Made by a program: the position numbers and the translations under genes | Virus record (IMG/VR): IMGVR_UViG_3300027747_002427 | Origin: a virus | Taxonomy: Duplodnaviria > Caudoviricetes | Length of the DNA stretch: 64,000 nucleotides | Reading direction: 5' to 3' (one strand) | The notes under the pieces: generated by a model | What the model saw: the letters and a program-made list of their open reading frames with translations, nothing else | Databases searched by the model: none | What the model was told of the DNA's origin: nothing | In this document: piece after piece, positions 3,639 to 37,402 of the stretch | Layout: each line of letters begins with the position of its first letter | How positions within the stretch are numbered: position 1 is the first letter of the stretch

Positions 3639-3667
3639 TTGAGTTTTCCCAATAATGGGGATATTAT
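3639..3667 (+). promoter_or_regulatory. Outlying copy of the early promoter repeat
   Basis: TTGAGT-tttcccaataatgggga(17)-TATTAT. Confidence 0.65.
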
Positions 3668-10886: not shown

Positions 10887-10983
10887 TGTTTCTATATTAA
10901 TAAAGCTTTACGATATATCAAGTATTAATTTTAAAGGATTCTTTTGGGTTGATCTTTCCCTAATTATTACATATTATATATAC

Positions 10984-11610
10984 ATGAAGAATAACAACAA
11001 CCTAACAGAAGCATACACCGCAGTTTATATGGAGAACATCACCACCGAGACTGGTGCAGAGCACACCCAGGAACTCATCACCCAGCTCCTTGATTATCTT
11101 AGCAAGGGGCAGACTATTGCATCCTTCTTGTACAAGTCCAAAGGGCTTGGTGAAACCGCTCTTTACAATGTTCATTTGAATGTTGACTATAAGAAGGCTA
11201 AGGAAGAAGACTATAAGAAGCTCGAGGCTTATGAGCCAGAGACAGAATTGGAAGGTCAAGCCAAGGAGCACCTCCTTAATCTCTATCGTAATCCTAAGGC
11301 TCGCACACAGAAGCAAATGGATACCTACACCAATTATGGCAAAGGTATCAGGGTTAATAATAACAACGGCTTGTTGCATCTCTTTGGTTATAAGATCAAC
11401 AAGAGCACAGTTGCCGATGGTGTCGAGAAGAAAGACACTCGTAAGGAGCTTACAAAGGCTTGCGACGACCTCAAAGCCAAGCTTAACTTCCTTCACCAGA
11501 AGATTCGTGATTTTATTCTTGATCCTCAACACATTGCAGGTCTCAAAGCTAAGGGTAATGTGATTGAATTCCAACAGGATGACAATGGTGATAGCACCGG
11601 AGGAGTGTAA
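10984..11610 (+). CDS. Hypothetical protein (start reassigned to MKNNNNLTEAY)
   Basis: TTGATC(10949)-17-TATTAT-6 nt-ATG(10984); GC-richer codon usage than its neighbours. Confidence 0.6.
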   Translation: MKNNNNLTEAYTAVYMENITTETGAEHTQELITQLLDYLSKGQTIASFLYKSKGLGETALYNVHLNVDYKKAKEEDYKKLEAYEPETELEGQAKEHLLNLYRNPKARTQKQMDTYTNYGKGIRVNNNNGLLHLFGYKINKSTVADGVEKKDTRKELTKACDDLKAKLNFLHQKIRDFILDPQHIAGLKAKGNVIEFQQDDNGDSTGGV

Positions 11611-15812: not shown

Positions 15813-16429
15813 ATATAGTAACGATCTTGGTTTGTATCTATAGTACCGAAGTCCCAGGAGAGCTGTTTAGAGAAATAAGGAGACATACGATCATAGAGTC
15901 TGACTCTTGAGGGTTCTGCCTTAGAAGCTGAGAGTACAACTACGTTAATGTCGGGAATGTTTATACGTTTGAGATCCCCTTTGTCTTCCAGTGGCTTTAA
16001 AGTATCAAGACTTAGAGACTTTGGCCAGAGAACATCTTTCTTAGTTCTCTTAAATAGGATAGCCTTTTTGTAAACAAAGTCCTTGAGAGAAGACATAACC
16101 GTGCCGAATACTTGAGGAGATGACCCGGAACCCGTTAAGGCATGAGGATCCTTTTCGTCGTCTTCATAACCTTCTTCATTAAAGGATAGTATATAGGGAG
16201 CATTATTCTCTAAGGCTTTCTTGATATTAGGAGATAGCGTATCAACTTCCGTAGTAGAAAAGGTATCATAGATATAGGTTCTCAATAGATTAATAGCATA
16301 GTTAACATTAGATGGAGAAGTAAAGGAGCTTCTGTACATCTCATCACTTAAGAGTTCTATCCAACAAGAAGATGATGGACTATCGAATAGCTCTAATAAT
16401 AGAGAATGGACTTGTTTATCAAATTTCAT
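15797..16429 (-). CDS. Hypothetical protein with MKFD...LLLE N-terminal motif
   Basis: 210-aa ORF. Confidence 0.55.
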   Translation of the reverse strand: MKFDKQVHSLLLELFDSPSSSCWIELLSDEMYRSSFTSPSNVNYAINLLRTYIYDTFSTTEVDTLSPNIKKALENNAPYILSFNEEGYEDDEKDPHALTGSGSSPQVFGTVMSSLKDFVYKKAILFKRTKKDVLWPKSLSLDTLKPLEDKGDLKRINIPDINVVVLSASKAEPSRVRLYDRMSPYFSKQLSWDFGTIDTNQDRYYIYVRK

Positions 16430-17359: not shown

Positions 17360-17918
17360 TACAACCCTATAAAATAATAGAACATTAGATTCTATTAAAG
17401 TATTATATAGAATAGTATATAGTATAGAATTGATATAACCGATTTAATAGCACTCTATGATTTAATACAACATGATGTTCTATTAACGCATTTTTACTAT
17501 CATAACCAAGAAAAAATACCCCCTTTCAATAAAGAAAAGTTGTTAAAAATAAGGGAAAAGTTGTTAAAAATAAAGAAAAAGTATTCTTTTCCCGGGAATT
17601 ATATTCTAGTAATAATACCCCTTATAAGAAGAAACCTATTATGTTATAGTATAAAATAAAGCTAATAACACCTTTTCCTCCTATATAAACAACTCTATAT
17701 ACTTTCTCAATTAGCTATTAATAGCACTTTAAGCAAGTCAAATCAAGTATACGTTCCACAAAATCCCTTATAGCTCATATAAAGACTATTAAGTTACATA
17801 AGAATCTATATAAAGACTTTAAACCCCCAAAATATTTCCTCGGTTCTTTCCCGGGAAAACATAAAGAGAAAAAGTGTATAAACCTTCCGCCCCCCAAATT
17901 TTTCCCCAGACCAATTTA

Positions 17919-17947
17919 ATTTTATAGGAATTTTAGGGAAAAGTCAA
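17919..17947 (-). promoter_or_regulatory. ORF-less copy of the early promoter repeat
   Basis: TTGACT-tttccctaaaattccta(17)-TAAAAT on the minus strand. Confidence 0.6.
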
Positions 17948-17996
17948 GGAAAAAGGAGGATATTAGGAAACCCCACCCAGATAGAGGGGTATTTGA

Positions 17997-18080
17997 TAAC
18001 GACCGGTTGTTAACTTTTTTAACGACCGGTCGTTGAGATTTATAACGTCCGGTCGTTAATTTCTTAATGACCGGTCGCTA
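17997..18080. repeat. Four tandem 16-bp palindromes, consensus TAACGACCGGTCGTTA
   Basis: Copies at 17997, 18020, 18043 and 18065 (period 23/23/22). Confidence 0.9.
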
Positions 18081-18143
18081 GAGATTTTGGATTTAGGTAT
18101 TCTAAAGTGGGGGAAAGGGAAACTCACGTCAAAAATTCTAGGC

Positions 18144-18172
18144 TTGACCTTTCCAGAGAATTCCTATATAAT
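18144..18172 (+). promoter_or_regulatory. ORF-less promoter copy (convergent pair, left)
   Basis: TTGACC-17-TATAAT. Confidence 0.75.
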
Positions 18173-18207
18173 ACCCTAGGTGCAGCCGGCATTTGGGGTC
18201 CAGTTCA

Positions 18208-18236
18208 ATTATATAGGATAATAGGGGAAAGGTCAA
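18208..18236 (-). promoter_or_regulatory. ORF-less promoter copy (convergent pair, right)
   Basis: TTGACC-17-TATAAT on the minus strand. Confidence 0.75.
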
Positions 18237-18350
18237 GCTTCGAATGCGCTAGGAATTTGAGCAGCCTCCAGTACCCTACCCTCGGATTGTCACACCCTGT
18301 TCGCCCTGTTATTTCGGATCGAGGCTCTTCCGTGTTCTGATTATGTATAT

Positions 18351-18379
18351 ATTCTATAGCAATATGGGGGAAACCTCAA
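18351..18379 (-). promoter_or_regulatory. ORF-less promoter copy
   Basis: TTGAGG-tttcccccatattgcta(17)-TAGAAT-ATATAC followed by ATA instead of ATG. Confidence 0.65.
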
Positions 18380-18437
18380 GCCTATAATTTCTCAGAATCT
18401 TCTTTTCTTTTCCTACAATCCCTATTATAATAAGGGC

Positions 18438-18617
18438 ATGAAAAATAACAACACCACAGTAGACGAGTATTACGAGAACGTGATGAAGGCCGCTAAGACC
18501 CTGGAGGAGTACTATGAGAAGATGGCTAACTTCACTCCAGTTCCCGAGAACAAGAAGACCTATCAGATGTTTAGGAGGGAGATGAGGGATCTTTGGAAGA
18601 CCCACGCTGCCTATTAA
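18438..18617 (+). CDS. Cassette gene, 59 aa (MKNNNT...), missing from the ORF track
   Basis: TATAAT-6 nt-ATG; GC3-rich codons. Confidence 0.7.
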   Translation: MKNNNTTVDEYYENVMKAAKTLEEYYEKMANFTPVPENKKTYQMFRREMRDLWKTHAAY

Positions 18618-18656
18618 GATCTTGAGTTTTCCCACAATAACCTATATACTAAGAGT

Positions 18657-18896
18657 ATGAAAAATAAAAACAAGTACCCCATCAACGGATCGATCATGGA
18701 AGGCGTTAGTGTTCGCACAGGCGTCCATCAATATGATGATAAGAATAGAACGGTAGTAGAATTGACCTTCCAGGGCTATAATAGCTCCTATGTCCAGGTC
18801 ATAGATATTAACACCGCGGCGAGCCTTATTAAACAGCTTAGGGAGCAAGGTATTGCCCAGGCTGAGTATATTACAGCCGCCGAGGTATTCGCTTGA
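18657..18896 (+). CDS. Cassette gene (MKNK)
   Basis: Promoter repeat upstream; stop lies in the next -35 box. Confidence 0.75.
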   Translation: MKNKNKYPINGSIMEGVSVRTGVHQYDDKNRTVVELTFQGYNSSYVQVIDINTAASLIKQLREQGIAQAEYITAAEVFA

Positions 18897-18927
18897 TCTT
18901 TCCCCCTAAAACCTATATACTAATAGT

Positions 18928-19176
18928 ATGAAAAATAAAGAATACACCATCAATACAGATCCCAAGGGCCTCGACTACATCATTGGTAACTACCATATGT
19001 ATCGAAGCGATGTCTACGATGCCTTGGAGAAGCTTCAGCAATACCTAGATGATTCTCACGTTAAAGCCGTTCTAGAGAGCGAGGATCCTGAGATTCAAGA
19101 GCGTTTGAGTGAGGAGTGCCTCCATCTTGACTTCACTACCTTTCTAGAGGATCTCAAAGGAGCCATGGGATACTAA
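18928..19176 (+). CDS. Cassette gene (MKNK)
   Basis: Promoter repeat upstream. Confidence 0.75.
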   Translation: MKNKEYTINTDPKGLDYIIGNYHMYRSDVYDALEKLQQYLDDSHVKAVLESEDPEIQERLSEECLHLDFTTFLEDLKGAMGY

Positions 19177-19351
19177 ATAGATATATGATCGAAGATACTA
19201 CCAAGCATCCGACTGGTGAGTTACCCCCTACTCCGGAGCCTCCTAAGTTCCCAGAGCCTGTGATAGCTCCCCCAGTACCTGCACCTACAAACGAATAACC
19301 CTATCACATTTGGTTCTTGAGTTTTCCCACTAAACCCTTTATACTTAAAGT

Positions 19352-19537
19352 ATGAAAAATAAGAACACCGTAAAGGATATCGTCACCCACCTGGAGTCCA
19401 CGGGCAAGTCCCCGGACTACATCATCGGAACCCTGATGGCCATGCTCGATGGTCTCACCTATGAGTATAGTGGGACCGCGCAGCAGACCATCGATAGTTA
19501 CATCAACCACCACCTCAACCCCAATACCAACGCCTAA
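19352..19537 (+). CDS. Cassette gene (MKNK), KSPDYII paralog family
   Basis: Promoter repeat upstream; similar to ORFs 15630 and 32795. Confidence 0.75.
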   Translation: MKNKNTVKDIVTHLESTGKSPDYIIGTLMAMLDGLTYEYSGTAQQTIDSYINHHLNPNTNA

Positions 19538-19538
19538 T

Positions 19539-19877
19539 ATGGGAGCCTACATCTACCGCCTCAAGGGCAGCAAGGCCTTCACTCTGATGAAGATTGATGG
19601 CCAGATCCAGCGAGTCTATGACTACGTCTATTGGTACAAGCCTTACTATACCGGCATGTTCGAGAGTGAGCCTAAGTGGATGAAGCCTGTTCGAATGCTT
19701 GATACTCGCCTCCGTAACGCGTTTGCAAAGGTTGAGCCTGTTAAGTGGGTTCGCCACGTCAATGATATGGGAGAGAAAGATGACTACATTATGGAGTGGC
19801 CTGGCGGTATTAGCATTAGCGATTACAACGAGCGCTATCAGAATGCTCGTAGGATCCCAGTAAGCGATTTGGCTTGA
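19539..19877 (+). CDS. Hypothetical protein coupled via TAATATG
   Basis: Start MGAYIYRL directly after the upstream TAA; stop in the next -35 box. Confidence 0.65.
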   Translation: MGAYIYRLKGSKAFTLMKIDGQIQRVYDYVYWYKPYYTGMFESEPKWMKPVRMLDTRLRNAFAKVEPVKWVRHVNDMGEKDDYIMEWPGGISISDYNERYQNARRIPVSDLA

Positions 19878-19908
19878 GATTTCCCCCTAAACCCATTATA
19901 CTAATAGT

Positions 19909-20109
19909 ATGAAAAATAAAGACCACGACGAGATCATCACCACCCACAACCACCGCCTCATCCGCCTTGACGCCCAGAAGAAGTTCGTCGAGCAGATGAT
20001 TAAGGACCTTCAGGTGCAATATACTACCCTCAGCGATGACTGGGACGAGACCTGGAGGAGCCGGCAGTATTACATTAACAGAGAAGAAGAGAGTGCCGTT
20101 ACCACCTAA
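19909..20109 (+). CDS. Cassette gene (MKNK)
   Basis: Promoter repeat upstream. Confidence 0.75.
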   Translation: MKNKDHDEIITTHNHRLIRLDAQKKFVEQMIKDLQVQYTTLSDDWDETWRSRQYYINREEESAVTT

Positions 20110-20128
20110 ACCCTAGATAATAATATAT

Positions 20129-20572
20129 ATGAATAAGAAAGCCACCTCACCGCTCCTAGAGCTCACCGCCACCTCCTCCTATAATAGCCTCCAGAAGGCC
20201 GTAGAAGGCCGTTGTAAAGACCGTAGTCGCGAAGGCAATGTAGGTCTTACCTTCTCTATCTTTGAGACAAATAAGACCTTGGATAAGGGTCTGGATAGTG
20301 GAGACTGGATTGTCAATCACCCAGATATCTTTGATGAGGGCGCCGTATTCGAAGGTAAGTGCGTCTTCTATAGCGATTACTGGAGGATCTCTGATAAAGA
20401 GGTCTACAGCGAAGTAATGGAACACCCAAGCTGGAGGGAGATCATTAGCGAATGTAATCGCCAGTTGATTGATCAAGAGGATGGTAGCACCGCTTGCCTC
20501 TTCCTCGAGGGCTTTACCGAGATGGAACCTAAAGACGGAGTCCGAGTCTTCGAGATCGATTGGGGTTCTTAG
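20129..20572 (+). CDS. Hypothetical protein
   Basis: Partial promoter repeat upstream; HVFLEGF-like CLFLEGF motif. Confidence 0.6.
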   Translation: MNKKATSPLLELTATSSYNSLQKAVEGRCKDRSREGNVGLTFSIFETNKTLDKGLDSGDWIVNHPDIFDEGAVFEGKCVFYSDYWRISDKEVYSEVMEHPSWREIISECNRQLIDQEDGSTACLFLEGFTEMEPKDGVRVFEIDWGS

Positions 20573-20610
20573 AGGTTGACCTTTCCCCCTAAATCCTTTA
20601 TACTAAGAGT

Positions 20611-20850
20611 ATGAAAAATAAAGCATATCAGTTCTCCATCATGTCGGAAGAAGAACGCTCTATACATCTCTTTTATACCATTGAAGGTATGGTAGAGACC
20701 TTAGAGCTGATTGGTAAGCAGCTTGATACAGAAGCTCTTAATGGAGCCTCTCGCCTCGCTAAGCTTGCAGATATTAACGAAGAGATCGAATTACTCTTCT
20801 TGAGAGTTCACAAAGACTACCACGCAAACAAAACCAAGGAAGCCATCTAA
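20611..20850 (+). CDS. Cassette gene (MKNK)
   Basis: Promoter repeat upstream. Confidence 0.75.
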   Translation: MKNKAYQFSIMSEEERSIHLFYTIEGMVETLELIGKQLDTEALNGASRLAKLADINEEIELLFLRVHKDYHANKTKEAI

Positions 20851-21085
20851 TATGACCTATAGGAAACTAATCGCCCATCTCCAAGAGAAATACGCAGAGC
20901 ATCTGGATGATCCTGTAAAGCTCGAGTCTATGCACGATAACGCGATTTATCACGTGTTTAGCGCGCGTACAGCGCATAAAGATGTGCCTTATGACGACAT
21001 CAAAGAGGATGATCTCATTCTACTAATCGAATATCCACACTAATTGGGGGTTGACTTTTCCCCGGTAATCCGTTATACTAATAGT

Positions 21086-21757
21086 ATGAAAAATAAGAAC
21101 AAGCAAAAGAAGATTTCCAGGAAACAAGCCATCGCTGATTCCCGGGTACCAGTAAAGGTTTCCCGGAAACGTATTCCCAAGAACGAGCGTATCAACAAGG
21201 CAGACCAGTTTGAATACCTAGGAATTGATACCTGGGTAAAGACTTTCCAGGGAACTAAGAAGTTCCCACATAATAAGATTACCTGTTCTGAATGCCGGCA
21301 TAATACGGTTTCCATGTTTGGTAACCAGCTAGCGAATTACCTGGCAAAGTATAACGGGGATACCCGGAAACTCCTTACCGAGTTCAAGTGTCGCGTATGT
21401 CGTTCCCTGGACAAAGAGGCTATCAAGTTGAAGGAGCCTAAAGAGCCTAAGGTAAAGGTAGAAAAGGAAAAGGTATTCCTTTCCCCGGAAGAGTGGGAAG
21501 CTCGTAAGGAGGAGGTTCGTAAGACCCTTCCTAAGATGGATCCTAACTACCAAACCCAGGAAATCGATTTGGTTAAGGACAAGGAGACGTGTTCCCAGGT
21601 AACAGCCATGGCATGCTGGCGCCCAGACATCTTCCTCAATCTCGGATGCGCCGAGTGTGTTCTACAGAAGAATTGTGCTTGTCCAATTAAGGATATCAAT
21701 CGTATTCCAGACAATCGCCCAAGGAAATTCAAGAGGGCAGTAACGAAAGCCGCTTGA
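21086..21757 (+). CDS. Cassette gene (MKNK), Cys-rich putative zinc-binding protein
   Basis: CSEC...CRVC and a C-terminal C..C...CAEC...CAC cluster. Confidence 0.7.
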   Translation: MKNKNKQKKISRKQAIADSRVPVKVSRKRIPKNERINKADQFEYLGIDTWVKTFQGTKKFPHNKITCSECRHNTVSMFGNQLANYLAKYNGDTRKLLTEFKCRVCRSLDKEAIKLKEPKEPKVKVEKEKVFLSPEEWEARKEEVRKTLPKMDPNYQTQEIDLVKDKETCSQVTAMACWRPDIFLNLGCAECVLQKNCACPIKDINRIPDNRPRKFKRAVTKAA

Positions 21758-22001
21758 TAAACGTTTAACCTATAGTATTATTTTAATATGCACGTATGGC
21801 AATCAAAGAGAGTTTTAAAGACAGGACCTATCTACCAAGTACCTACTTGGGTAAAGAACCGACCGAAGGCAATAGCTACAGCGGACTGGGAGCAGATGGT
21901 AAAGGACTTCAAGTTCAACAAGCTTATTGTACTAGATAAGGTTCCTAAGACTAGTAAGAAAAAGAATTTCGCAACAAACGAAAGAAAGGAAAACAACAAC
22001 A

Positions 22002-22238
22002 ATGACAAAAACAATCGCTAATACGATCGTTCGCAATATCAGTGATCTCACTGGCCGCACTGTCTCCAGCCGTACAGGCAAGGCAGCAAAGCTTGAGCTG
22101 ATCTCTGAGAGCATCAATGAGAGTCGCTATGAGATTCTCGGTCTCGTTGGACGCAGTAATAACGTCATGCTTCGCCCACGTTTTCACAACGTGCGTAACA
22201 AGCAGGGCCGCTTCACTGCTCGCCGCCGCAGCCGCTAA
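22002..22238 (+). CDS. Small basic protein with RNKQGRF motif
   Basis: 78-aa ORF with GC3-rich codons. Confidence 0.6.
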   Translation: MTKTIANTIVRNISDLTGRTVSSRTGKAAKLELISESINESRYEILGLVGRSNNVMLRPRFHNVRNKQGRFTARRRSR

Positions 22239-22243
22239 AGATT

Positions 22244-22322
22244 AAGGGTCTAGTGAATAGATTGCAGGGAGAGCCTGCTCGGGAAGTTTTTATTCCTCAT
22301 TGAACACACTAGACCTTTTTCT
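22244..22322 (+). terminator. Branched terminator-like RNA
   Basis: 12-bp closing stem (22244-22255/22307-22318) with two internal hairpins, then a T run. Confidence 0.5.
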
Positions 22323-22628
22323 TTCTTTTTAGATTGACATTTCCCCCTTAATCCTTTATTATATATACATGATTGATTCAAACCTGTATCGCAAAATTGA
22401 AATGGCCGGCGAAGCACTTCTCGCTGATTACAAGCTAACCTATCCTGATATGAGTGATAGTCAGATCCGTACAGATCTTCTTCTTAATCACGGATCGAAG
22501 GTTATACACATGAGTGTAGATAATGATCTCCTAGAAGGAATCATTGATAGCGATCGTCAAGACGATCCAGAGTACAAGGCTCTCCTTCTTATAGCTGGAG
22601 TATACTTCGTAACCCTCTAACCCTTTAT

Positions 22629-22704
22629 GCCTGTGTAGTCCAACGGCAGAGACAAGCGACTTAAAATCGCTCCAGTATCGGTTCGAATCCGATCACAGGT
22701 ACCA
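22629..22704 (+). tRNA. tRNA-Leu(UAA), short variable loop
   Basis: GCCTGTG/CACAGGT acceptor stem, AGCGA-CTTAAAA-TCGCT anticodon arm, GTTCGAATC, encoded CCA. Confidence 0.85.
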
Positions 22705-23293
22705 CTTTAAGATTGACCTTTCCCACCAATTGCTATAATATATAAACAATGAAACACCTCCTACACCTCTTAGGGTTTACTCAACGTAAGCCTTCACTCC
22801 TCCTCATGCATATGTGTGACGTCACTCACGGCACCTGGCTTCAGGATCTTTATCGTACCAATCGTCTTAGCGACTACAACGTAAAGAAGTAACATGATCT
22901 GGCCTAAAGACCCTCCAGTGACTCGTTCCGAATTCCGCCGAGCTTTGAATCTTCATTGTCATAATAAGCTTGGAGTCAGCTTCAGTGACCTTCCAGACAT
23001 TATCAATATCGATGACGTATGGTGGGAGGGACAGACCATTGGAGAAGCTCTCACTATGATTAACAGTTGTATTGAAGACTTTAAAGAAGAAATGGGTGTT
23101 GCACTTTCCCACTAACAGGAGTATAATAATAATAATATGATCATCGAATTCTCACCTGGCAAGTTACCAAAGAGTAAAGAAGCTTTGAAGGATATTATCC
23201 TCGAAGCAGTCAAGAAGTCTTCAACGAACCCTGATGCCGTTAATGCCGGCCGACAGCCTCAGGACAATAATACAAAGGCCGGCGTTACTCAAT

Positions 23294-23512
23294 ATGCAAA
23301 CTAAAGTCACACTCACGGATCTAATTCGTAATATCTTGACCGCAGAGCAGGAGTTGTCCGTAAAGGATATCCTTACTAAAGTACAAGAGACTATTGCAGG
23401 CGAGCAGCTGACCATCAAGGCCGATTACCGTAAGGTTTATCGTCACCTTCGTACGTGCGCCACTAAGACGGCACGCGGTCAGTTCTCCCTCACCGAGACC
23501 TCTGCCTCCTAA
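23294..23512 (+). CDS. Small winged-helix-like protein
   Basis: LIRNIL...LSVKDIL...KVYRHLR...RGQFSL pattern. Confidence 0.45.
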   Translation: MQTKVTLTDLIRNILTAEQELSVKDILTKVQETIAGEQLTIKADYRKVYRHLRTCATKTARGQFSLTETSAS

Positions 23513-23536
23513 AGGTAAGTCTCGGCAACCATCAAC

Positions 23537-23627
23537 ACTGGGTTAATGTAATTGGAAGCATCGCACAGCTTATATCTGTGAATCCCTAGATGAGGGACGA
23601 GCATCGGTTCGATTCCGATACCCAGTA
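23537..23627 (+). tRNA. Atypical tRNA, anticodon UAU, long variable arm
   Basis: ACTGGGT/ACCCAGT; ATGT/GCAT D stem; CACAG-CTTATAT-CTGTG; TCCCT/AGGGA variable stem; ATCGG-TTCGATT-CCGAT. Confidence 0.75.
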
Positions 23628-23816
23628 CTTTTTATGACAGACACCAACACAACATCGAAAGAAGCAAAAGTATTCGCACTCTGCCAGGACCTGGAAGATA
23701 TGCGAGATCGTAAGAAGGCATCTAGCAAAGCCTTTAGCGATGAGATCAAGCGTATTCAAGCGGAGATCAAGGATCTTATAGATCCTTCCGAGCCTGAAGA
23801 AGCTCCATAGTATTAC

Positions 23817-23889
23817 GCCCTTGTAGCTCAATGGTCAGAGCAGTCGGCTCATAACTGATTGGTTGGGGGTTCGAATCCCTCCGGGGGCA
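23817..23889 (+). tRNA. tRNA with CAU anticodon (Met or Ile2)
   Basis: Cloverleaf with a CTCATAA loop. Confidence 0.85.
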
Positions 23890-23895
23890 CTCTAT

Positions 23896-23971
23896 GCATC
23901 GGTAGCTCAGTGGATAGAGCAGGGGTTTTCTAAACCCTTGGTCGCAGGTTCGATCCCTGCCCGATGTACCA
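23896..23971 (+). tRNA. tRNA-Arg(UCU)
   Basis: Cloverleaf with a TTTCTAA loop and encoded CCA. Confidence 0.9.
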
Positions 23972-23974
23972 TTT

Positions 23975-24046
23975 GGAATCGTAGCTCAATGGTAGAGCAG
24001 TAGACTTTTAATCTATTGGTTATGGGTTCGAGTCCCATCGATTCCA
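23975..24046 (+). tRNA. tRNA-Lys(UUU)
   Basis: Cloverleaf with a CTTTTAA loop. Confidence 0.9.
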
Positions 24047-24127
24047 CTTTAATACAACAGCATGATATAATAGCGCCGGCCTCTCTATTATCGTGAATTT
24101 TCCCACTAAATGATTGATACTAATAGT

Positions 24128-24298
24128 ATGAAAAATAACAACAGTGCAGTTGCAGCAGAGATCGAAGCGCTCCACCAGGAGATCGCTACCCTCAAGGCCC
24201 AGATCAAAGATCTGGTTAACGTCACCAACAACAACAAAGAGGTCCTCTTCGATCTTCTCGAAGTCCTCAAGAACCCAGCCTCAGCATACCTCGTCTAA
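24128..24298 (+). CDS. Cassette gene (MKNN), coiled-coil
   Basis: Promoter repeat upstream. Confidence 0.7.
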   Translation: MKNNNSAVAAEIEALHQEIATLKAQIKDLVNVTNNNKEVLFDLLEVLKNPASAYLV

Positions 24299-24302
24299 TA
24301 AT

Positions 24303-24671
24303 ATGGCAACACGTTCCCAAGTTAAGTTCTCCGATCGCGGAGTAGTCGCAGCTAATATCTATGTCCACTATGATGGATACCCAGAAGGTGAAGCTGGTCG
24401 TCTCAATCAGCTTCAGCGCTTCTTTAAGTGTGTGAAGGAGAATTGCAGAGACACTCGCTTTCATGATGCAGAGTATCTTGCAGCCAAGTACATCGTTTGG
24501 TATGCTACAGAGTATTGTAAGGATGAGGAGAATCCCAAGCATGCTCTAGACTTCTCAGGCATTGGAATCTGTCTCGAGGACCATGGTGACATTGAGTACA
24601 CCTACCTGGTTGATTGTGACCATCACGATCCAGAGACTGGGTTCCCTACCGTCGATGTTAGGAAGCGGTAA
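24303..24671 (+). CDS. Conserved phage protein (MATRS...IYVHYDGYPEG type)
   Basis: Recognisable IYxHxDGYP motif. Confidence 0.7.
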   Translation: MATRSQVKFSDRGVVAANIYVHYDGYPEGEAGRLNQLQRFFKCVKENCRDTRFHDAEYLAAKYIVWYATEYCKDEENPKHALDFSGIGICLEDHGDIEYTYLVDCDHHDPETGFPTVDVRKR

Positions 24672-24738
24672 CATTTGAGGTGGTAAGGGGGGAAAGATTG
24701 TGGTGGTCTTTCCCCCCAAATCTCTTTATACTAAGAGT

Positions 24739-24891
24739 ATGAAAAATAAGAACACCGTCAAAGCCACCACAGTCATCAAGAACATCCGCCGCATGATCAG
24801 CCAGCCGGCCATGCAGGGACCGAAGCACCAGGCCTGGAGGGAGTCCTGGTTGCACGTCATCAAAGGTCTTGAGAGGGGCGAATCGATTTGA
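24739..24891 (+). CDS. Cassette gene (MKNK)
   Basis: Promoter repeat upstream; stop in the next -35 box. Confidence 0.7.
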   Translation: MKNKNTVKATTVIKNIRRMISQPAMQGPKHQAWRESWLHVIKGLERGESI

Positions 24892-24922
24892 TTTTCCCCC
24901 ATAAATCCTAGATAATAAATGT

Positions 24923-25147
24923 ATGAAAAATAAGAACACATTCGAAGAGATCATGAACGAGTACAAGGCCCTGGACCAGATGTTCAAGCAGATGGTCCGC
25001 AACACCGCGGTGATGGAGCTCAAGGAGTGGGGCGTCGAGGAGATCGGAAGCTCGGACGTGAACTGCCAGATCGTCGACCTCTACAACAGCTACGGCGGAT
25101 TCGACGAGATTGTCCGACATGGGTTGGACCTTGTCCGTAGCCGATAA
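24923..25147 (+). CDS. Cassette gene (MKNK)
   Basis: Promoter repeat upstream. Confidence 0.75.
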   Translation: MKNKNTFEEIMNEYKALDQMFKQMVRNTAVMELKEWGVEEIGSSDVNCQIVDLYNSYGGFDEIVRHGLDLVRSR

Positions 25148-25185
25148 GGATTGAAATTCCCACCTAAACCTCATATAATAATAGT

Positions 25186-25506
25186 ATGAAAATTAAGAAT
25201 GCACGTATGCAGTGGAGCAATGAAAAGCGTACCACGAAGTCCGTCCTCTACTTCTTCCCGGTTGGAGAGACCATCATAGACAACCTCGCTATGCGCCGTA
25301 AACGCCCTATAAAAGAGTTTCGCGCACTTATACCTGAAGTATGCGCAGCAGTAGGTCTCAATATGGCAGACCATAAGTTCAGCTGGAGCCAGAAGGCAGG
25401 TTGCTCTTGCGGTTGCTCGCCTGGCTTCGTAGTAAAGCATCTCTATAGTAAGCAGATCTTCTGCGATGTTACCATGGACAATGACTTCGAGGGTCTTGGC
25501 CTTTAA
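25186..25506 (+). CDS. Cassette gene (MKIK) with AGCSCGCSPGF motif
   Basis: Promoter repeat upstream; CxCxC metal-binding motif seen in other phage proteins. Confidence 0.75.
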   Translation: MKIKNARMQWSNEKRTTKSVLYFFPVGETIIDNLAMRRKRPIKEFRALIPEVCAAVGLNMADHKFSWSQKAGCSCGCSPGFVVKHLYSKQIFCDVTMDNDFEGLGL

Positions 25507-25543
25507 GATTGTCTTTCCCACCTAAACCCAATATAATAATAGT

Positions 25544-25816
25544 ATGAAAATTAAACAATACGTTATAGACCTCCTCACGTTCGGCTTCGTTGCTCTGGCC
25601 TTCAGTGCAGCAAGCGCCGGCCTCACCGCTGCCTACTATCAGCACCTCGCCGTGGTTCACAATGCCGCAACGTACGAGGCAAGCAGCTGGGGTAATGTAA
25701 GCTTCCACTGGAACGATGTTAGCTACGCGCAAGCACCCTTCCAAGACCCAGCGGAGACCCAGAAGAAAATGGATGACGCCTTCGCTAAAGAACTCAAAGC
25801 CAAAGGCATCAAGTAA
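25544..25816 (+). CDS. Cassette gene (MKIK), membrane protein
   Basis: Promoter repeat upstream; N-terminal hydrophobic helix. Confidence 0.75.
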   Translation: MKIKQYVIDLLTFGFVALAFSAASAGLTAAYYQHLAVVHNAATYEASSWGNVSFHWNDVSYAQAPFQDPAETQKKMDDAFAKELKAKGIK

Positions 25817-26078
25817 CACCTAACACCTACCTAATATGAAAATCACAGCTTCCACTAAAGAGAAACTTAAGCACGTGTCCTATGTAGTCGAGGACGTACC
25901 TAACTTCGGAACAGCCATTTACACTGATGTGTACAACGAGAATGATAGGATAGTCGATAGCTTCATTCGTACCGAAGACGGATACGCAATCGAAGCACCG
26001 GCTCTCTTCGAGACCATTCAGGACTTTGTATGCAGCAATAGTGTTGAGGTTTCTCCCTAAATGCTTTATACTAAGAGT

Positions 26079-26399
26079 ATGAAAAATAAGAACACCACAC
26101 TGACCGAGCTCGAAACCCAAATCCTCACCCTCCTGTTCAAGGACGCCGAGGGCAACGGCCACGACTTCGGCATCATCGAGAACCTCAGCGACTACGAAGG
26201 CGTCGACATGAAGGTCGCGCGCGGAGTCCTCAGCTCCCTGGTCCAGAAAGACATCATCACCATCCACGAGTATCGCTTCGAGATGGGAATGGAACAGGGC
26301 TGCACCCAGTTCACCTGGAACCACGTTCCCGCCGATATCTACCCAGAGAGCATCACCCACGTACTCCCAGAGAATGTAACCCTGGGAGTTGCAGCTTGA
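26079..26399 (+). CDS. Cassette gene (MKNK), possible winged helix
   Basis: Promoter repeat upstream; ARGVLSSLVQKDII resembles a wHTH; stop in the next -35 box. Confidence 0.7.
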   Translation: MKNKNTTLTELETQILTLLFKDAEGNGHDFGIIENLSDYEGVDMKVARGVLSSLVQKDIITIHEYRFEMGMEQGCTQFTWNHVPADIYPESITHVLPENVTLGVAA

Positions 26400-26430
26400 G
26401 ATTCCCACCTAAACATAATATAATAATAGT

Positions 26431-26673
26431 ATGAAAAATAAGAACATCCACCAACAGTATCAGGAAATCATCGACTCCATCAAGGCCCTCGGCACGGTCC
26501 GCATCCAGGAGGCTCTGGCGAACCTCGAGAAGGACTTCCAACTAACCTCCAACGTCTATGCTCGTATGGGACTCCTCGGAAGGATCCAGATGCATGAGAG
26601 GGCTCTCAAGGAGCTTACCAACACCGAGAAGAGCCTGGAGATCCTCGACGAAGCCTTTGCCACCCACGCCTAA
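26431..26673 (+). CDS. Cassette gene (MKNK)
   Basis: Promoter repeat upstream. Confidence 0.75.
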   Translation: MKNKNIHQQYQEIIDSIKALGTVRIQEALANLEKDFQLTSNVYARMGLLGRIQMHERALKELTNTEKSLEILDEAFATHA

Positions 26674-27094
26674 TATGGAACAACCTCCTAAAGATTATCA
26701 ACTGAAGTTAGTCATCGAGAAGCTGGAGAAGAGTTTAGACAAGCTCTCTGTCCTCGAATACGAAATCAAAGACGCCCTAATGTTAGCAGCAGACCTCTAC
26801 GAGAGAATCACCAACAACAACGACTAATATGAAGATCGAAACCAAAGCCTACGAAGTCCTAGAAGAGCTGATGGACGGAACCAACAAGCTAGAGAAGCTC
26901 TATAGAGCAGCAACTCATCGCCCAGACTCACCTTGGATTGAGAAGCCAGGACGCTTCGCAGACTGGGTAGGAGGCCAAATGCTAGAGGCCATGGAAGAAG
27001 AGCTTAGGCACCTAGAGCAGAGGTTCATTACAGATGAAGCTCTCCTAGCCATGGTAGATAAGAGCTAATATCATTTTCATACCCGCGGTGGGGT

Positions 27095-27130
27095 AAGGGA
27101 GGAGGTCTGTGGTGGGCCTCCTCCCTTTTT
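27095..27130 (+). terminator. Intrinsic terminator
   Basis: AGGGAGGAGG...CCTCCTCCCT-TTTT. Confidence 0.8.
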
Positions 27131-27168
27131 GTATTGTCTTTCCCCCATAAAGAGATTATAATAATAGT

Positions 27169-27534
27169 ATGAAAATTGAGAACACCACACCCACCGAAGC
27201 CCAAATCGAACTCGCCGGATACCTCCTCACGCGCGAGGTAACCTTCACCGAGGAGTGCGAGGCCAACCCCAAGATCCAGTGGTTCGCCGTGGCCAGCTAC
27301 ACCCTCGAGGACATCATGGGCCTCACCCCCTACCGCAGCGGCTACGCGGACATCGCCGAGTACGAGCACCAGGAGGACCTCATCGAGGCCAAGGAGGCTC
27401 GTAAGAACTCCTACTATGACTACGACGACGAGCAGCGCGCCTGGTTCGAGAAGGAAGAAGAGGCTCATCGAAACGCTCTCAAGGAGCTGGTGAGTTCCGA
27501 GTACAAGCCACTGGGGGTAGGACTCCCCCTTTAA
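27169..27534 (+). CDS. Cassette gene (MKIE), acidic
   Basis: Promoter repeat upstream; almost all codons end in C/G. Confidence 0.75.
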   Translation: MKIENTTPTEAQIELAGYLLTREVTFTEECEANPKIQWFAVASYTLEDIMGLTPYRSGYADIAEYEHQEDLIEAKEARKNSYYDYDDEQRAWFEKEEEAHRNALKELVSSEYKPLGVGLPL

Positions 27535-27572
27535 GGCTTGGCTTTCCCCCTTACTTGATAGATAATAATAGT

Positions 27573-27803
27573 ATGAACAATAAGATCACCATTGGAGAGT
27601 TAAAGAAAGGTCAGCGATTCAAGTACGGCAACAGCGGCATCTATGAGTGCGCCAACCCGTACTGGCCTCAGGCCCGGAACCCAGCCTACCGCTCAGCTAA
27701 GATCATCGTGGTAGTTCCATCAATCAACCCGGAGGCTACCTACCCAACAGTACCAGGCCAGTGTGTCACCTTCAATCACAGGACCAAAGTGGAGCTCCTT
27801 TAG
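27573..27803 (+). CDS. Cassette gene (MNNK)
   Basis: Promoter repeat upstream. Confidence 0.7.
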   Translation: MNNKITIGELKKGQRFKYGNSGIYECANPYWPQARNPAYRSAKIIVVVPSINPEATYPTVPGQCVTFNHRTKVELL

Positions 27804-27840
27804 ACTTTCTTTTCCCCCATAACCATTATATAATAATAGT

Positions 27841-28062
27841 ATGAAAAATAAGAACATCGAAGTAGGTTCCATCGTCACCCTCAACTCCAACACCGATCGT
27901 GTCCACCGCGTCACCAAGGTCGATGAGTTCGGCATCTGCACAACGCCAGCGGGAGGCCAGCCAGAGTACCAGTCCAGGTACGGCTCCTTCCCTCTCGCTT
28001 CCTGGGAGGTTGTTACCCTCGCTACAGAGGAGCAGCTCAAGCTAGTAGGCACCTGGCGCTAA
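27841..28062 (+). CDS. Cassette gene (MKNK), SH3/KOW-like
   Basis: IEVGSIVTL...HRVTKV pattern; promoter repeat upstream. Confidence 0.7.
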   Translation: MKNKNIEVGSIVTLNSNTDRVHRVTKVDEFGICTTPAGGQPEYQSRYGSFPLASWEVVTLATEEQLKLVGTWR

Positions 28063-28101
28063 GGGGTTGACCTTTCCCCCATTATAGGTTATACTTATAG
28101 T

Positions 28102-28404
28102 ATGAAAAATAAGAAGACCCAATACACCGCCACAGCCCCTAACGGAGACGTCCTCAGCGTCACCTCCACGCGCCCGCTGGTCGAGTGCCACGTCGCCATC
28201 AACAAGGAGACCAACGCCACGGGAGCCTACCGCTGGACCATCAAGCGCCAGGGCAAGGCCTCCGCCTCCTCCTGCGGCTACAGCTTCGGCTACGTGGGTA
28301 GCTGGTGCACGGACGCTGCCAAGTACAATGCCGAGGCCGACAAAGAGAAGGCCTTGCGCAACGCCAAGTACACCTTCCACATCGTCCCAGTGGTCGCCGC
28401 CTAA
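28102..28404 (+). CDS. Cassette gene (MKNK)
   Basis: Promoter repeat upstream. Confidence 0.75.
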   Translation: MKNKKTQYTATAPNGDVLSVTSTRPLVECHVAINKETNATGAYRWTIKRQGKASASSCGYSFGYVGSWCTDAAKYNAEADKEKALRNAKYTFHIVPVVAA

Positions 28405-28624
28405 GCTTAACGACCGCGGTCGGATACCTACCGGTCTTAATAGCGACCAGGGGTAATACTACCGACCGCGGTATGCTAGGACCCCGGACGTTCAAATTTG
28501 TTAATAGGGGAATAGCAAGCAGAAACGGCCGGGGGGCAATCCCGCGTATATAGGGGGGTACCCTGGTATTAAATCGCCAAAGTATTAAATTGCTATTCCC
28601 TTATATAAGTAATAATATATTTTA

Positions 28625-28993
28625 TATGAAAAATAAAGATCAAATCATGTTAGAGTCTCTGTATACTAATAGTATGAAAAATAAGAACACCAAGCCCGCC
28701 CTCAAAGCTCTCTTCCCTGGCCAGGAGGTCTCTGTAATGGGCTTCAGGGAGTATGGTAAAGTTATCGAGCGTCAAAAGGAGAAGGTTATGGGCAATACTG
28801 TCTATAGGGTCAAGTGTGAGGGTAAGGAGTTTAATGTATCTCGCCGTCAACTTGGCGTTCGAGTTAACAATATCTTTAAGTTCGGTCCTTACAATACAAC
28901 CGATCTTCCTGCTTGAAGTTCTAATCAAATTCCCTTATACTAATAGTATGAAAAATAAAGATCAAATCATGTTAGAGTCTCTGTATACTAATA
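28625..28993 (+). repeat. 47-bp exact direct repeat (28625-28671 and 28947-28993)
   Basis: TATGAAAAATAAAGATCAAATCATGTTAGAGTCTCTGTATACTAATA occurs twice, 322 bp apart. Confidence 0.95.
28674..28916 (+). CDS. Cassette gene (MKNK), SH3/KOW-like, between the 47-bp repeats
   Basis: FPGQEVSV...GKVI...VYRVKC pattern; stop in the next -35 box. Confidence 0.7.
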   Translation: MKNKNTKPALKALFPGQEVSVMGFREYGKVIERQKEKVMGNTVYRVKCEGKEFNVSRRQLGVRVNNIFKFGPYNTTDLPA

Positions 28994-29358
28994 AGGTATT
29001 GAAAGAGGACGAAGAGAATGGAGATAATGTATTAAAGAAGTATACCTATGAGATTCTTTATAGAACTGATTACAAATATGATCCTAAGACAAAGAAGGCT
29101 ATAAGTTGGTCTTATGGTTCTCATTCTAGAGGTTGGCCGGATCTCCGACATGAATTTGCTTATTCTGATGATGATTTTTGGTCTAAGATAGATGATTCTG
29201 GATATAGTGGTGGTAAGGATGAATTAAGAAAATCCATAGTTATTAAAAATGTTGAACCTGCTGATTTGAGAGAGGTTGAGCATGAGAAGAGAAAAAATAA
29301 GGCTATATCAGATTATTATAGTAATGCGAGTAAGACGGGTTCTTATTCGGGTGATTAG
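28948..29358 (+). CDS. Hypothetical protein with DQIMLESLY N-terminal motif
   Basis: Start reassigned to the promoter-linked ATG. Confidence 0.65.
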   Translation: MKNKDQIMLESLYTNKVLKEDEENGDNVLKKYTYEILYRTDYKYDPKTKKAISWSYGSHSRGWPDLRHEFAYSDDDFWSKIDDSGYSGGKDELRKSIVIKNVEPADLREVEHEKRKNKAISDYYSNASKTGSYSGD

Positions 29359-29380
29359 AGGAGGTTTCAGTTTAATAAAG

Positions 29381-29408
29381 AAAAAGGACTCTTCGGAGTC
29401 CTTTTTTT
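29381..29408. terminator. Bidirectional UUCG terminator
   Basis: AAAAAGGACTC-TTCG-GAGTCCTTTTTTT. Confidence 0.9.
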
Positions 29409-36460: not shown

Positions 36461-37402
36461 ATGAAAGACATATCTTTGTATTACGACGATATATATCTCG
36501 TTCCTCAATATTCTGAATTAAAAAGTAGAAGTGGAGCTGATACATCATTAACGTTTGGAAATCACAAATTCAAGCTTCCTATTGTTCCTTCTAATATGAA
36601 GGCAGTGATTAATGAAGAATGGTCAAAGTGGCTTTCTGAAAATGAATACTTTTATGTTATGCATCGTTTCAATAGTGCTACAGTGCCTTTTGTAAGAAAT
36701 GCTAATACAGAGAATTGGAAGACTATTAGTATTTCTACTGGAGTTAATGAAGAGAGTTTAGCCGAATTAGAAATTTTAAAAAATGATGGATGTAGAATTG
36801 ATTTTATAACAATTGATGTAGCTCATGGACATCATATTAAAGTGGCAGAACGTATTGAAGATGTTAAAACTTTATTCCCAAATACTTTTATTATTGCTGG
36901 TAATACATCATCTCCCGAAGCAACAGAAGAGTTAGAGCAATGGGGAGCAGATGCTACTAAATGTTTAATTGGTACTGGAAGTGCTTGTTCGACAAAATAT
37001 CAAACCGGATTTCATGTACCTTCATTTTCTTGTATTCAAGAATGTGCATCAGTAGCAAAGAAACCTATTGTTGCAGACGGCGGAGCCAAGTATTATGGGG
37101 ATATAGCTAAATCTTTAGTTGCCGGTGCTACTATGGTTATGAGTGGTGGAATGTTTGCCGCTTGTTCCGATTCACCAGCACCAGAGATTAATGGTAAGAA
37201 AAGATATTTTGGAAATGCTTCCGCTGTAGCAAAGGGTAAGAATCTTCATGTAGAAGGTTTTGATTTGCAAATTGAAGATGCGGGAATAAGTTTAGAAGAA
37301 AGATTAAACGAAATTCATCAAGCTTTACAAAGTTCTATTAGCTATGCTGGTGGATGGGATTTAAGATGTTTTCAACACGTAAAATATGTCAGACTCAAAT
37401 AA
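36461..37402 (+). CDS. guaC: GMP reductase
   Basis: FKLPIVPSNM, YFYVMHRF, TIDVAHGH, IIAGN, IGTGSAC, ADGG and LQSSISYAGG match the Bacillus-type GuaC pattern. Confidence 0.85.
   Translation: MKDISLYYDDIYLVPQYSELKSRSGADTSLTFGNHKFKLPIVPSNMKAVINEEWSKWLSENEYFYVMHRFNSATVPFVRNANTENWKTISISTGVNEESLAELEILKNDGCRIDFITIDVAHGHHIKVAERIEDVKTLFPNTFIIAGNTSSPEATEELEQWGADATKCLIGTGSACSTKYQTGFHVPSFSCIQECASVAKKPIVADGGAKYYGDIAKSLVAGATMVMSGGMFAACSDSPAPEINGKKRYFGNASAVAKGKNLHVEGFDLQIEDAGISLEERLNEIHQALQSSISYAGGWDLRCFQHVKYVRLK

Follow-up and report, generated by a model that had tools for sequence, protein, structure and literature searches.

Repeated sigma-70-like early promoters that carry a stem-loop and end in a Shine-Dalgarno sequence and a start codon have been described as promoter early stem-loop elements (PeSLs; PMC2839356, PMC4122927). 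They are concentrated before ORFans, in the hyperplastic regions of T4-type phages (Arbiol 2010, PMC2839356; Comeau 2014, PMC4122927), and closely related phages differ by the indels and replacements that they mediate; they also form mini-circles (PMC2839356, PMC4122927). The subject of this work is an array of comparable elements in a 64,000-nt stretch of DNA (the window) from a virus of the Caudoviricetes, deposited as IMG/VR record IMGVR_UViG_3300027747_002427. A block of the window between 18403 and 28958 is filled with genes that mostly stand behind near-identical copies of a unit combining a promoter, a start codon and the first codons, and we consider it likely that this block is a hyperplastic immediate-early region made of about 26 self-contained leaderless expression units, which are exchanged in the manner of PeSLs. 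An initial annotation, made from the sequence alone, had proposed the array as an undescribed system. This part has to be given up, since recombining early-promoter cassettes of T4-type phages are already published as PeSLs; no description of a leaderless form of PeSL was found in our literature search.

The block was scanned for a -35-like hexamer, a spacer of 16-18 nt, a -10 hexamer and an ATG 4-9 nt downstream, which returned 25 promoter-linked gene starts; the start at 27841, the promoter of which has a -35 below the scan threshold, was added as a 26th unit, and all 26 are located on the + strand. Each unit opens with a -35 box, mostly TTGAnn, followed by a spacer (17 nt in all units except one), a -10 box of the form TATA(C/A)T or GATAAT, and the ATG. 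In 21-22 units the -10 box is separated from the ATG by 6 nt, with gaps of 7 nt in three others and of 9 nt in one; both gap and spacer agree with the geometry first noticed. The tally of start peptides was likewise reproduced (14 MKNK, 2 MKNN and 3 MKI(K/E)), one additional MKNK belonging to a duplicated 5' end. The picture of one promoter per gene in about 25 cassettes stands in part: there are 26 units, but 11 genes of the block have no promoter of their own.

Inspection of 17.3-29.5 kb with ATGAA(A/C)A(A/T)T as the anchor recovered about 20 near-identical units, all on the + strand, from 18438 to 28948. A 21-nt core (TAKAMT-N6-ATGAAMAWT) has 17 matches versus 0.00 expected from 100 dinucleotide-preserving shuffles, and the -35/TTYCC-spacer/-10 pattern has 26 matches versus 1.45 expected. 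A 63-nt weight matrix of the unit holds about 60 bits; its 20 strong hits (>30 bits), all in the block, are its own 20 training copies and as such circular, the independent information coming from the remainder of the 64-kb window, where a single further hit, a weak one at 10984 (+), was obtained. The array is hereby confirmed as real and far beyond chance. Genome-wide copies were counted on related IMG/VR contigs: in five of them the units form one same-strand cluster, and in a 199-kb, 91%-complete contig a single 8-kb block holds 15 of 16 copies. Scanning viral contigs with a looser motif gave mostly single hits, which are probably chance, and multi-hit contigs alone were taken as meaningful.

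Concerning specificity to the block, the array itself is found there, but the promoter type had been presented as a feature of the block and further copies exist outside it, three on the + strand (3639, 10949 and 29824) and three on the minus strand (in 17919-18379). Two of these, at 10949-10998 and 3639-3667, have the TTTCCC spacer. The 10949 copy is placed 6 nt upstream of ATG AAG AAT AAC AAC (MKNNNN) at 10984, within ORF 10873-11610, and the true start of that gene may be 10984.

Conservation covers the spacer (TTTCCCcc..AAAcc), the discriminator (AA(T/G)AGT) and codons 2-6. The initial annotation had claimed that it exceeds the needs of sigma-70, which proved right, and the excess in spacer and discriminator is one argument that the unit is read by something other than the plain host sigma-70 holoenzyme. 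This could be a phage regulator binding the near-palindrome ATACTA-A-TAGTAT over the -10 box and start site, which would shut the early promoters together, or a phage-modified polymerase reading the TTCC spacer. The -10 box and discriminator indeed form a 13-nt palindrome in the TATACT-AATAGT copies, but the TATAAT variants break it, no candidate regulator was identified, and the canonical -35/17/-10 geometry is sufficient; we regard recognition of this kind as highly improbable and keep to a sigma-70-type promoter.

The unit is 45-60 nt long and recurs about every 300 nt, and units are packed edge to edge in the block. In five cases the stop codon of the upstream gene is the TGA within the next -35 hexamer (18896, 19877, 24891, 26399 and 28916), and a further three genes (20109, 23115 and 26060) end at the TAA of the next spacer; the remaining upstream stops lie 2-5 nt before the -35, a few (19298, 21043) 10-20 nt before it. 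By lending its -35 or spacer to these stops, the unit closes one gene and opens the next. In six of the 11 promoterless genes the start codon follows the preceding stop after one base, in a TAATATG junction, namely at the (C)TAATATG sites 19535-19541, 20848-20854, 24296-24305, 25829-25838, 26671-26677 and 26825-26831. No Shine-Dalgarno sequence accompanies these junctions, and the arrangement suggests putative termination-reinitiation coupling.

With the -10 box at -12 to -7 and a gap of 6 nt, promoter geometry places +1 on the A of the ATG, and judged from this geometry transcription probably starts there. An ORF placed next to the -10 box in this way is documented for leaderless genes of Deinococcus-Thermus (PMC12340547). 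Leaderless initiation is determined by accessibility of the start codon, a leader length of zero and the identity of the AUG (PMC8459731), and by sequence the block combines an AUG start and an accessible 5' end with the lack of a Shine-Dalgarno sequence. Specifically, of the 36 block genes two are preceded by a Shine-Dalgarno-like tetramer (GGAG/GAGG/AGGA). Folding of the 5'-terminal 30 nt of the predicted mRNAs gives a median energy of 0.0 versus -3.9 kcal/mol in internal windows (p 8e-12), and the unpaired probability of their first 9 nt is 0.94 versus 0.52.

A -10 box placed about 6 nt ahead of the ATG, which had been noted for the block, and the missing Shine-Dalgarno sequence are both present there, but hold for the whole window. 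The same tetramers precede 4 of the 80 other window genes, and a T4-late-like TAAATA ends 6-7 nt before the ATG in 10 of 79 genes outside the block (0.2 expected). Additionally, TAAGTA ends 5-6 nt upstream of the ATG in seven genes outside the block. A leaderless or short-leader style consequently seems to characterise the window as a whole, and probably the host, late genes may also be leaderless, and the sparse Shine-Dalgarno sequences across the window point to a host in which Shine-Dalgarno-independent initiation would be the rule. The genes for gp23 in relatives show no obvious late motif 6-7 nt before the ATG, indicating that the leaderless style is not universal across genes.

The first codons speak to the level at which the unit is constrained. 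Alignment of 21 cassette starts (20129 and the 20 copies of the matrix) shows AAA for all 19 lysines at codon 2 and AAT for all 17 asparagines at codon 3, while in the bodies of block genes AAG is used for 76% of lysines, and asparagine is AAT in 42% and AAC in 58%. Fixation of AAA and AAT against the codon bias of the block indicates a constraint at bases +4 to +9 on nucleotides and not on residues. This argues against MKNK(N)(T) being a protein-level tag that would serve targeting, packaging, secretion or controlled degradation of otherwise unrelated early proteins. The MKI, MNN and MNK variants keep the A/T-rich pattern and not the residues, the 5' ends are selected for lack of structure, and an informal reading of the N-termini (no systematic scan) showed no common cleavage-like motif after the tag. 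The objection from nucleotide constraint does not reach codons 4-6: codon 4 varies synonymously (11 AAG, 7 AAA) with lysine kept, and codons 5-6 (Asn, Thr) use the preferred codons of the block, as a tag would predict. On balance a tag is disfavoured and in our judgement improbable.

Evidence for exchange of the units was obtained from relatives and strain variants. L018, an independent 13-kb lake contig with 82-94% identity across the block, is without cassettes 24739, 26079, 27841, 28102 and 28674 and carries different genes at several positions. At its position 8120 the stretch before the ATG matches the window 24739 promoter without a difference over about 50 nt, stem-loop included, and from +15 the sequence is the body of the window 24923 gene, in frame; the switch lies inside a shared 15 nt, TATGAAAAATAAGAA, which spans the ATG and the next four codons. 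Promoters are also swapped in L010, a 112-kb IMG/VR contig with 60-95% protein identity: the 18438 promoter (cassette 1) drives the homologue of the 18657 gene, the unusual GTGAAT promoter of 24128 (cassette 13) is retained with an unrelated gene behind it, and the 27573 promoter (cassette 21) is retained in front of another gene. The 27573 gene itself sits, in L018, behind a promoter resembling the window 28102 promoter.

Strain variants in public lake metagenomes also differ by whole cassettes. A 2.9-kb contig from run X8 skips exactly 19886-20104 (cassette 19909) between two neighbouring spacers that share 9 nt, CCTAAACCC, and these spacers, once joined, give gene 20129 a complete promoter again; insertion of cassette 5 in the spacer of this promoter explains the missing -35 of gene 20129 in the window. 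In X8, 20860-21046 is also replaced by 181 other bases. Variants in runs X7 and X8 are without 28625-28946 (cassette 28674), which lies between 47-nt direct repeats; this cassette entered the MKNKDQI gene at codons 13-16, which happen to spell the -10 box and discriminator. A variant in run X5 is without 19177-19879, and its right breakpoint falls at the -35/spacer boundary. Joints in contigs that make long "skips" or "go back" with sides of about 30 nt sit on the repeat and were not counted as deletions or circles. One further joint, 26104/26609, is out of frame with the intervening sequence not known, and was left uninterpreted.

At larger distance, L012 carries homologues of eight window genes in a different order. 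Between the window and L018, adjacent cassettes have dS values as low as 0.15 and as high as 1.76; dN/dS is 0.08-0.23. The block is accordingly a mosaic, made of genuine genes. Spacers are clade-specific, TTTCCCcc..AAAcc in the window and L010 and TTCC....AAATTCC in a second clade (clade B: L012, L013 and L014), the -10 box, discriminator and first codons are common to both clades, and the last cassette of the window (28948) carries the spacer type of the other clade. Junctions of indels and replacements between close relatives lie in the cassettes. The view of the unit as a combined promoter, start-codon and recombination module is borne out by the in-frame switch in L018, the promoter swaps in L010 and the cassette deletions. 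Alignment of relatives revealed whole-cassette differences with crossovers in the repeat and an order shuffled in L012; identical gene order with breakpoints unrelated to the repeat was not seen among them.

Had the units become alike through convergent promoter optimisation alone, their similarity would play no part in gene gain, loss and shuffling. Distant genomes are as alike in the -10 box, discriminator and first six codons as are the copies within one genome (identity 0.7-0.88), which functional constraint predicts, and the same promoter type drives genes outside the block; both suit such optimisation. It fails to account for crossovers inside the units (the switch in the first five codons, the 9-nt spacer stretch and the 47-nt direct repeats), for the independent reassortment of promoters and bodies in L018 and L010, or for the dS mosaic, and we consider it very unlikely to be the whole explanation.

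As for transcription, a lake metatranscriptome (X4) contains contigs identical to the window, with a depth of 7-21 over 18.0-28.7 kb. In the flanks at 12.0-18.0 and 29.3-31.3 kb the X4 depth is 0 in most bins and never above about 1.4, and three DNA runs cover the flanks evenly. This pattern is unlike DNA carry-over and indicates that the block is strongly represented as RNA. The breaks of RNA contigs coincide with repeats, which is an assembly effect.

We can now set out how such an array would work. In each unit, a strong sigma-70-type promoter would be positioned so that transcription starts on the A of the ATG, yielding a leaderless mRNA without a Shine-Dalgarno sequence, in which the A-rich and unstructured AUG AAA AAU AAG AAC would be the first sequence transcribed and, at the same time, the site at which ribosomes enter. 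Promoterless genes would probably be served by re-initiation at the TAATATG junctions. The unit also supplies an upstream stop (TGA in the -35, TAA in the spacer), and a repeat that carries stops, promoter and start permits in-frame exchange of whole genes by homologous recombination; recombination between units would in this manner delete, insert and swap genes. The cargo genes are small ORFans under purifying selection, and the five tRNA genes of the block would be co-transcribed with them. Early proteins would then likely be translated with tRNAs of the host, during which time the phage builds up decoders for its AT-rich later genes. We infer the early timing, the host-takeover function and this tRNA logic.

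Several points weigh against this explanation. Recognition of the unit by the host RNA polymerase is assumed, and the RNA data are assembled contigs, silent on 5' ends and strand. There are two internal terminators only, which implies that many genes are also read through on leadered polycistronic RNA. The alignments run through the shared repeat, and several breakpoints can be placed only within the unit; moreover, intergenic DNA is nearly all repeat, and many breakpoints would be expected there simply because those that disrupt genes are selected against. Finally, the cassette genes of clade B (L012, L013 and L014) have only moderate third-position G+C (0.2-0.57), from which it follows that the codon shift of the block, discussed below, is not an obligatory part of the system. 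The in-frame coding switch, the 9-nt overlap and the 47-nt repeats are independent of the caveat on repeat alignment.

Composition sets the block apart: its G+C content is 45-51%, and 29-39% in the window otherwise. Third-position C amounts to 36% in the block versus 9% outside, with positions 1 and 2 alike, and third-position G+C per gene is 0.37-0.87 (median about 0.56) versus 0.24-0.30 in the neighbours. Block genes avoid TTA, ATA, AGA, AAA, ACA, GAA, CAA and TCA, codons that are frequent in the rest of the phage and decoded by tRNAs which it encodes itself. The block contains, behind its promoters, five tRNA genes (Leu-TAA, Ile-TAT, Met, Arg-TCT and Lys-TTT), and an Rfam search of 16-31 kb returned these five tRNAs only. 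The tRNA-Ile(TAT) at 23537-23628 is 92 nt long, with the lowest Rfam score of the five (42.5 bits), and may carry an insertion or an unusual arm. In L015, L016 and L017 the major capsid gene (gp23 regions) has a G+C of 0.45-0.52 versus 0.33-0.41 around it, which suggests that codon G+C tracks expression level in the lineage; GC-biased repair in a recombination-hot region could also raise third-position G+C.

Two arrays of palindromic sites enclose the block. At the left boundary (17997-18080), four AACGACCGGTCGTT-like palindromic sites are spaced at 22-23 bp and conserved in L018 and L010, and at the right boundary (28408-28472) sites of the same family are found in the same place in both relatives (L018 about 1625-1700 and about 11165-11260; L010 about 7385-7475 and about 16105-16235). 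Within the window the motif occurs at these two locations only, and it was not found in the cassette regions of L012, L013 and L014. The edges of RNA coverage fall near the arrays, which may be operators, boundary elements or recombination sites.

The palindromes and the composition together bring up the explanation that the block is a horizontally moving island between the arrays, derived from a G+C-richer phage or host, the codon usage being its ancestry. The contrast in G+C (45-51% against 30-36% outside), the presence of the motif on both flanks in L018, L010 and the window, its lack of any other occurrence in the window, and its absence from the clade-B cassette regions, the genes of which are less G+C-rich, are in keeping with it. 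Against it, the same promoter architecture serves AT-rich genes just outside (28948, 29445, 29859 and 10984), only third positions show the composition shift, G+C is likewise raised in the major capsid gene of relatives, suggesting expression-linked codon selection, and Pfam and PHROGs scans of the cargo detected no recombinase or transposase in the block. We judge an island of foreign ancestry to be rather unlikely, and an expressed, recombining early region remains the preferred explanation.

Beside the left array, 17360-18400 is 1 kb without ORF, with four block-type promoters and tandem 21-nt repeats at 17534-17575; it could be a regulatory hub or a replication origin. One of its promoters (TTGACC-17-TATAAT, block type, 18144-18172, +) has no ORF behind it and faces the minus-strand copy at 18236-18208, the two being about 30 bp apart; the other minus-strand block-type promoters are at 17947-17919 and 18379-18351. 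Folding of the 167 nt downstream of the 18144 promoter is no better than that of shuffles (z +1.39).

Folding clearly above shuffles was observed in the array only at 24687-24717 and 27095-27127, and 23 of 25 units show none. The former (+) is a stem-loop of 14 pairs (z -4.6), the 3' arm of which is the C-rich spacer of cassette 14, and the latter (+) is an intrinsic-terminator-like stem-loop of 15 pairs with a T run (z -5.9). These two stem-loops have the loop TGTGGTGG in common (24698-24705 and 27107-27114) on different stems. A terminator-like stem-loop at 29379-29408 (+) closes the block.

The individual cassettes, all on the + strand and each opening with a promoter unless stated otherwise, are as follows. 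Cassette 1 (18403-18617) has an MKNNN gene of 59 aa, and cassette 2 (18622-18896) an MKNKNKY gene of 79 aa with its TGA stop within the next -35. Cassette 3 (18893-19298), with an MKNKEYT gene of 82 aa and a promoterless 37-aa ORF, is missing in L010, the junction lying in the repeat. In cassette 4 (19317-19877) an MKNKNTV gene of 61 aa is followed by a TAATATG-coupled gene at 19539-19877 (112 aa). Cassette 5 (19874-20109; MKNKDHD gene, 66 aa) is inserted in the spacer of the next promoter, leaving cassette 6 (20093-20572) with a promoter remnant (spacer and GATAAT, -35 displaced) and an MNKKATS gene of 147 aa. Cassette 7 (20576-21043) contains an MKNKAYQ gene of 79 aa and a TAATATG-coupled gene at 20852-21043. 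The MKNKNKQ gene of cassette 8 (21051-21757) encodes a Cys- and Lys-rich protein of 223 aa with no family match, which has 85-87% identity in L010 and L018.

Units 9 to 12 come next. Unit 9 (21754-22238) has a promoter with a 16-nt spacer and genes at 21788-22021 and 22002-22238, while unit 10 (22334-22704) has a TTGACA-17-TATTAT promoter, an MIDSNLY gene (83 aa) and tRNA-Leu(TAA). Unit 11 (22713-23115) carries an MKHLLHL gene (47 aa) and a gene at 22894-23115, which ends at the spacer TAA of the next promoter and is missing in L010. Three small genes and the tRNAs Ile(TAT), Met, Arg(TCT) and Lys(TTT) follow the promoter of unit 12 (23099-24047). Cassette 13 (24093-24671) comprises an MKNNNSA gene (56 aa) and a coupled gene at 24303-24671 (122 aa), cassette 14 (24704-24891) an MKNKNTV gene of 50 aa, and cassette 15 (24888-25147) an MKNKNTF gene of 74 aa with homologues in L010, L011, L014 and L018. 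Cassette 16 (25151-25506) encodes an MKIKNAR protein of 106 aa, and cassette 17 (25509-26060) an MKIKQYV protein of 90 aa, followed by a coupled gene at 25836-26060.

In the right part of the block, cassette 18 (26044-26399) is missing in L018 and L010; its MKNKNTT gene (106 aa) has a weak DnaD_N-like match below the Pfam cut-off. Cassette 19 (26396-27068) has an MKNKNIH gene (80 aa), which is behind a different promoter in L018, and two TAATATG-coupled genes. The MKIENTT gene (121 aa) of cassette 20 (27134-27534) has a dS versus L018 of only 0.15. Cassette 21 (27538-27803) bears an MNNKITI gene of 76 aa; cassette 22 (27806-28062), missing in L018, a promoter with a weak -35 and an MKNKNIE gene of 73 aa; and cassette 23 (28067-28404) an MKNKKTQ gene of 100 aa with a G+C of 0.62. 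Thereafter, at 28590-28672, a TTGCTA-17-TAATAT promoter precedes the duplicated 46-nt MKNKDQI 5' end, which is fused in frame to cassette 25 (28662-28916); the -10 of the latter comes from the LYTN codons of the duplicated gene start, and its MKNKNTK gene encodes 80 aa. Cassette 26 (28913-29358), with the spacer type of the relatives (TTC.AATCAAATTCC) and an AT-rich MKNKDQI gene of 136 aa, is 96% identical to L007.

With respect to the lineage, the window phage and its relatives were obtained from freshwater lakes. Relatives carrying the same cassettes encode T4 gp23, and by this and its gene content the phage is T4-like, its cassettes lying before ORFans in what is probably a hyperplastic region. 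The gp23 proteins of the relatives have about 35% identity to the nearest isolates, with cyanomyoviruses as best hits, which indicates a deep-branching lineage. No psbA was present in the 91%-complete relative, and matches of ribonucleotide reductase (RNR) and AAA-ATPase were uninformative for the host. Among 50,697 phage records, no relative was obtained in a nucleotide search with the block and an 8-kb flank, and no match was obtained for the largest cargo protein; a search with the 59-nt unit gave chance-level hits only. Comparison of the cargo proteins with PHROGs, Pfam and the ESM Atlas yielded no function, and none of the larger ORFs of the window or of the block cargo matched an integrase family in PHROGs or Pfam. 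Apart from the block, an adenylosuccinate-synthetase homologue is encoded at 52312-53310, the best phage family of which is PurZ-type (the '2-aminooxy adenylosuccinate synthetase' PHROG), and a GMP-reductase/IMPDH-like gene at 36461-37402; these two genes may hint at DNA with a modified purine (2-aminoadenine).

A wider interpretation is offered tentatively, as a possibility that we ourselves hold to be doubtful. The unit would be a portable in-frame expression adaptor, made of upstream stop, promoter and leaderless AUG with four to five codons, with crossover in the coding 5' end; the island would be regulated or moved via the palindrome arrays; and the lineage would perhaps do without Shine-Dalgarno sequences, its genome being split into early genes with host codons and later genes dependent on phage tRNAs. 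If this were true, any ORF recombining behind a unit would be expressed at once. The turnover of small early ORFan pools in virulent phages is only partly understood, and these ORFans include many candidates for host takeover and counter-defence. With promoter, start and first codons as one recombining unit, exchanges would stay in frame and new genes would need no ribosome-binding site. About 26 near-identical modules would offer a natural set for testing the efficiency of leaderless initiation, and the block would show with unusual sharpness how a single phage genome can hold two codon regimes, linked to its own tRNA genes.

The array can finally be placed among known systems. Like integrons, it consists of tandem single-gene cassettes that are gained, lost and reordered; integrons, however, need an integrase and attC sites and hold promoterless cassettes, whereas here there is a promoter per cassette and no integrase match, and exchange would proceed by homologous recombination. 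In the host-takeover module of SPO1 and the early regions of T5, small early genes are dense and many have their own strong host-type promoter. These genes have strong Shine-Dalgarno sequences, and we know of no description of shared N-terminal codons or promoter-mediated cassette shuffling in either phage. Leaderless expression is exemplified by lambda cI from PRM, and Thermus phage phiYS40 reportedly has leaderless middle and late genes, with promoters that lack a -35 box.

The leaderless genes of Deinococcus-Thermus (PMC12340547, PMC4007540) resemble the units in that the -10 box is fixed a few bases before the AUG, without a Shine-Dalgarno sequence and with an accessible 5' end, but they are scattered genes and promoter classes and not tandem near-identical recombining units. 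The T4-like cyanophage S-PM2, which has freshwater relatives, likewise carries a dispensable block of about 10 kb filled with small unknown genes, the 'ORFanage' (Puxty et al. 2015, PMC4503421); few PeSL-like elements occur in this block, and PeSL-mediated exchange was judged unlikely there (PMC4503421).

The closest likeness is that to PeSLs. Both consist of sigma-70-like early-promoter cassettes before ORFans, with junctions in the cassettes and no integrase; by sequence, TTGAnn-17-TATA(C/A)T is found in about 25 units, and a few copies have a poly-G/poly-C stem that extends into the promoter. The array differs from PeSLs in that a strong stem-loop occurs in 2 of 25 units, that it lacks a Shine-Dalgarno sequence and has the ATG 6 nt after the -10, that the first 5-6 codons belong to the repeat with crossovers within them, that the -35 and spacer provide upstream stops, and that the cargo is recoded to C-ending codons beside embedded tRNA genes. 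The PeSL principle is thereby seen in a deep-branching, uncultured freshwater lineage of T4-like phages in a simpler and tighter form, and the array is a leaderless, stem-loop-poor variant of the PeSL system.

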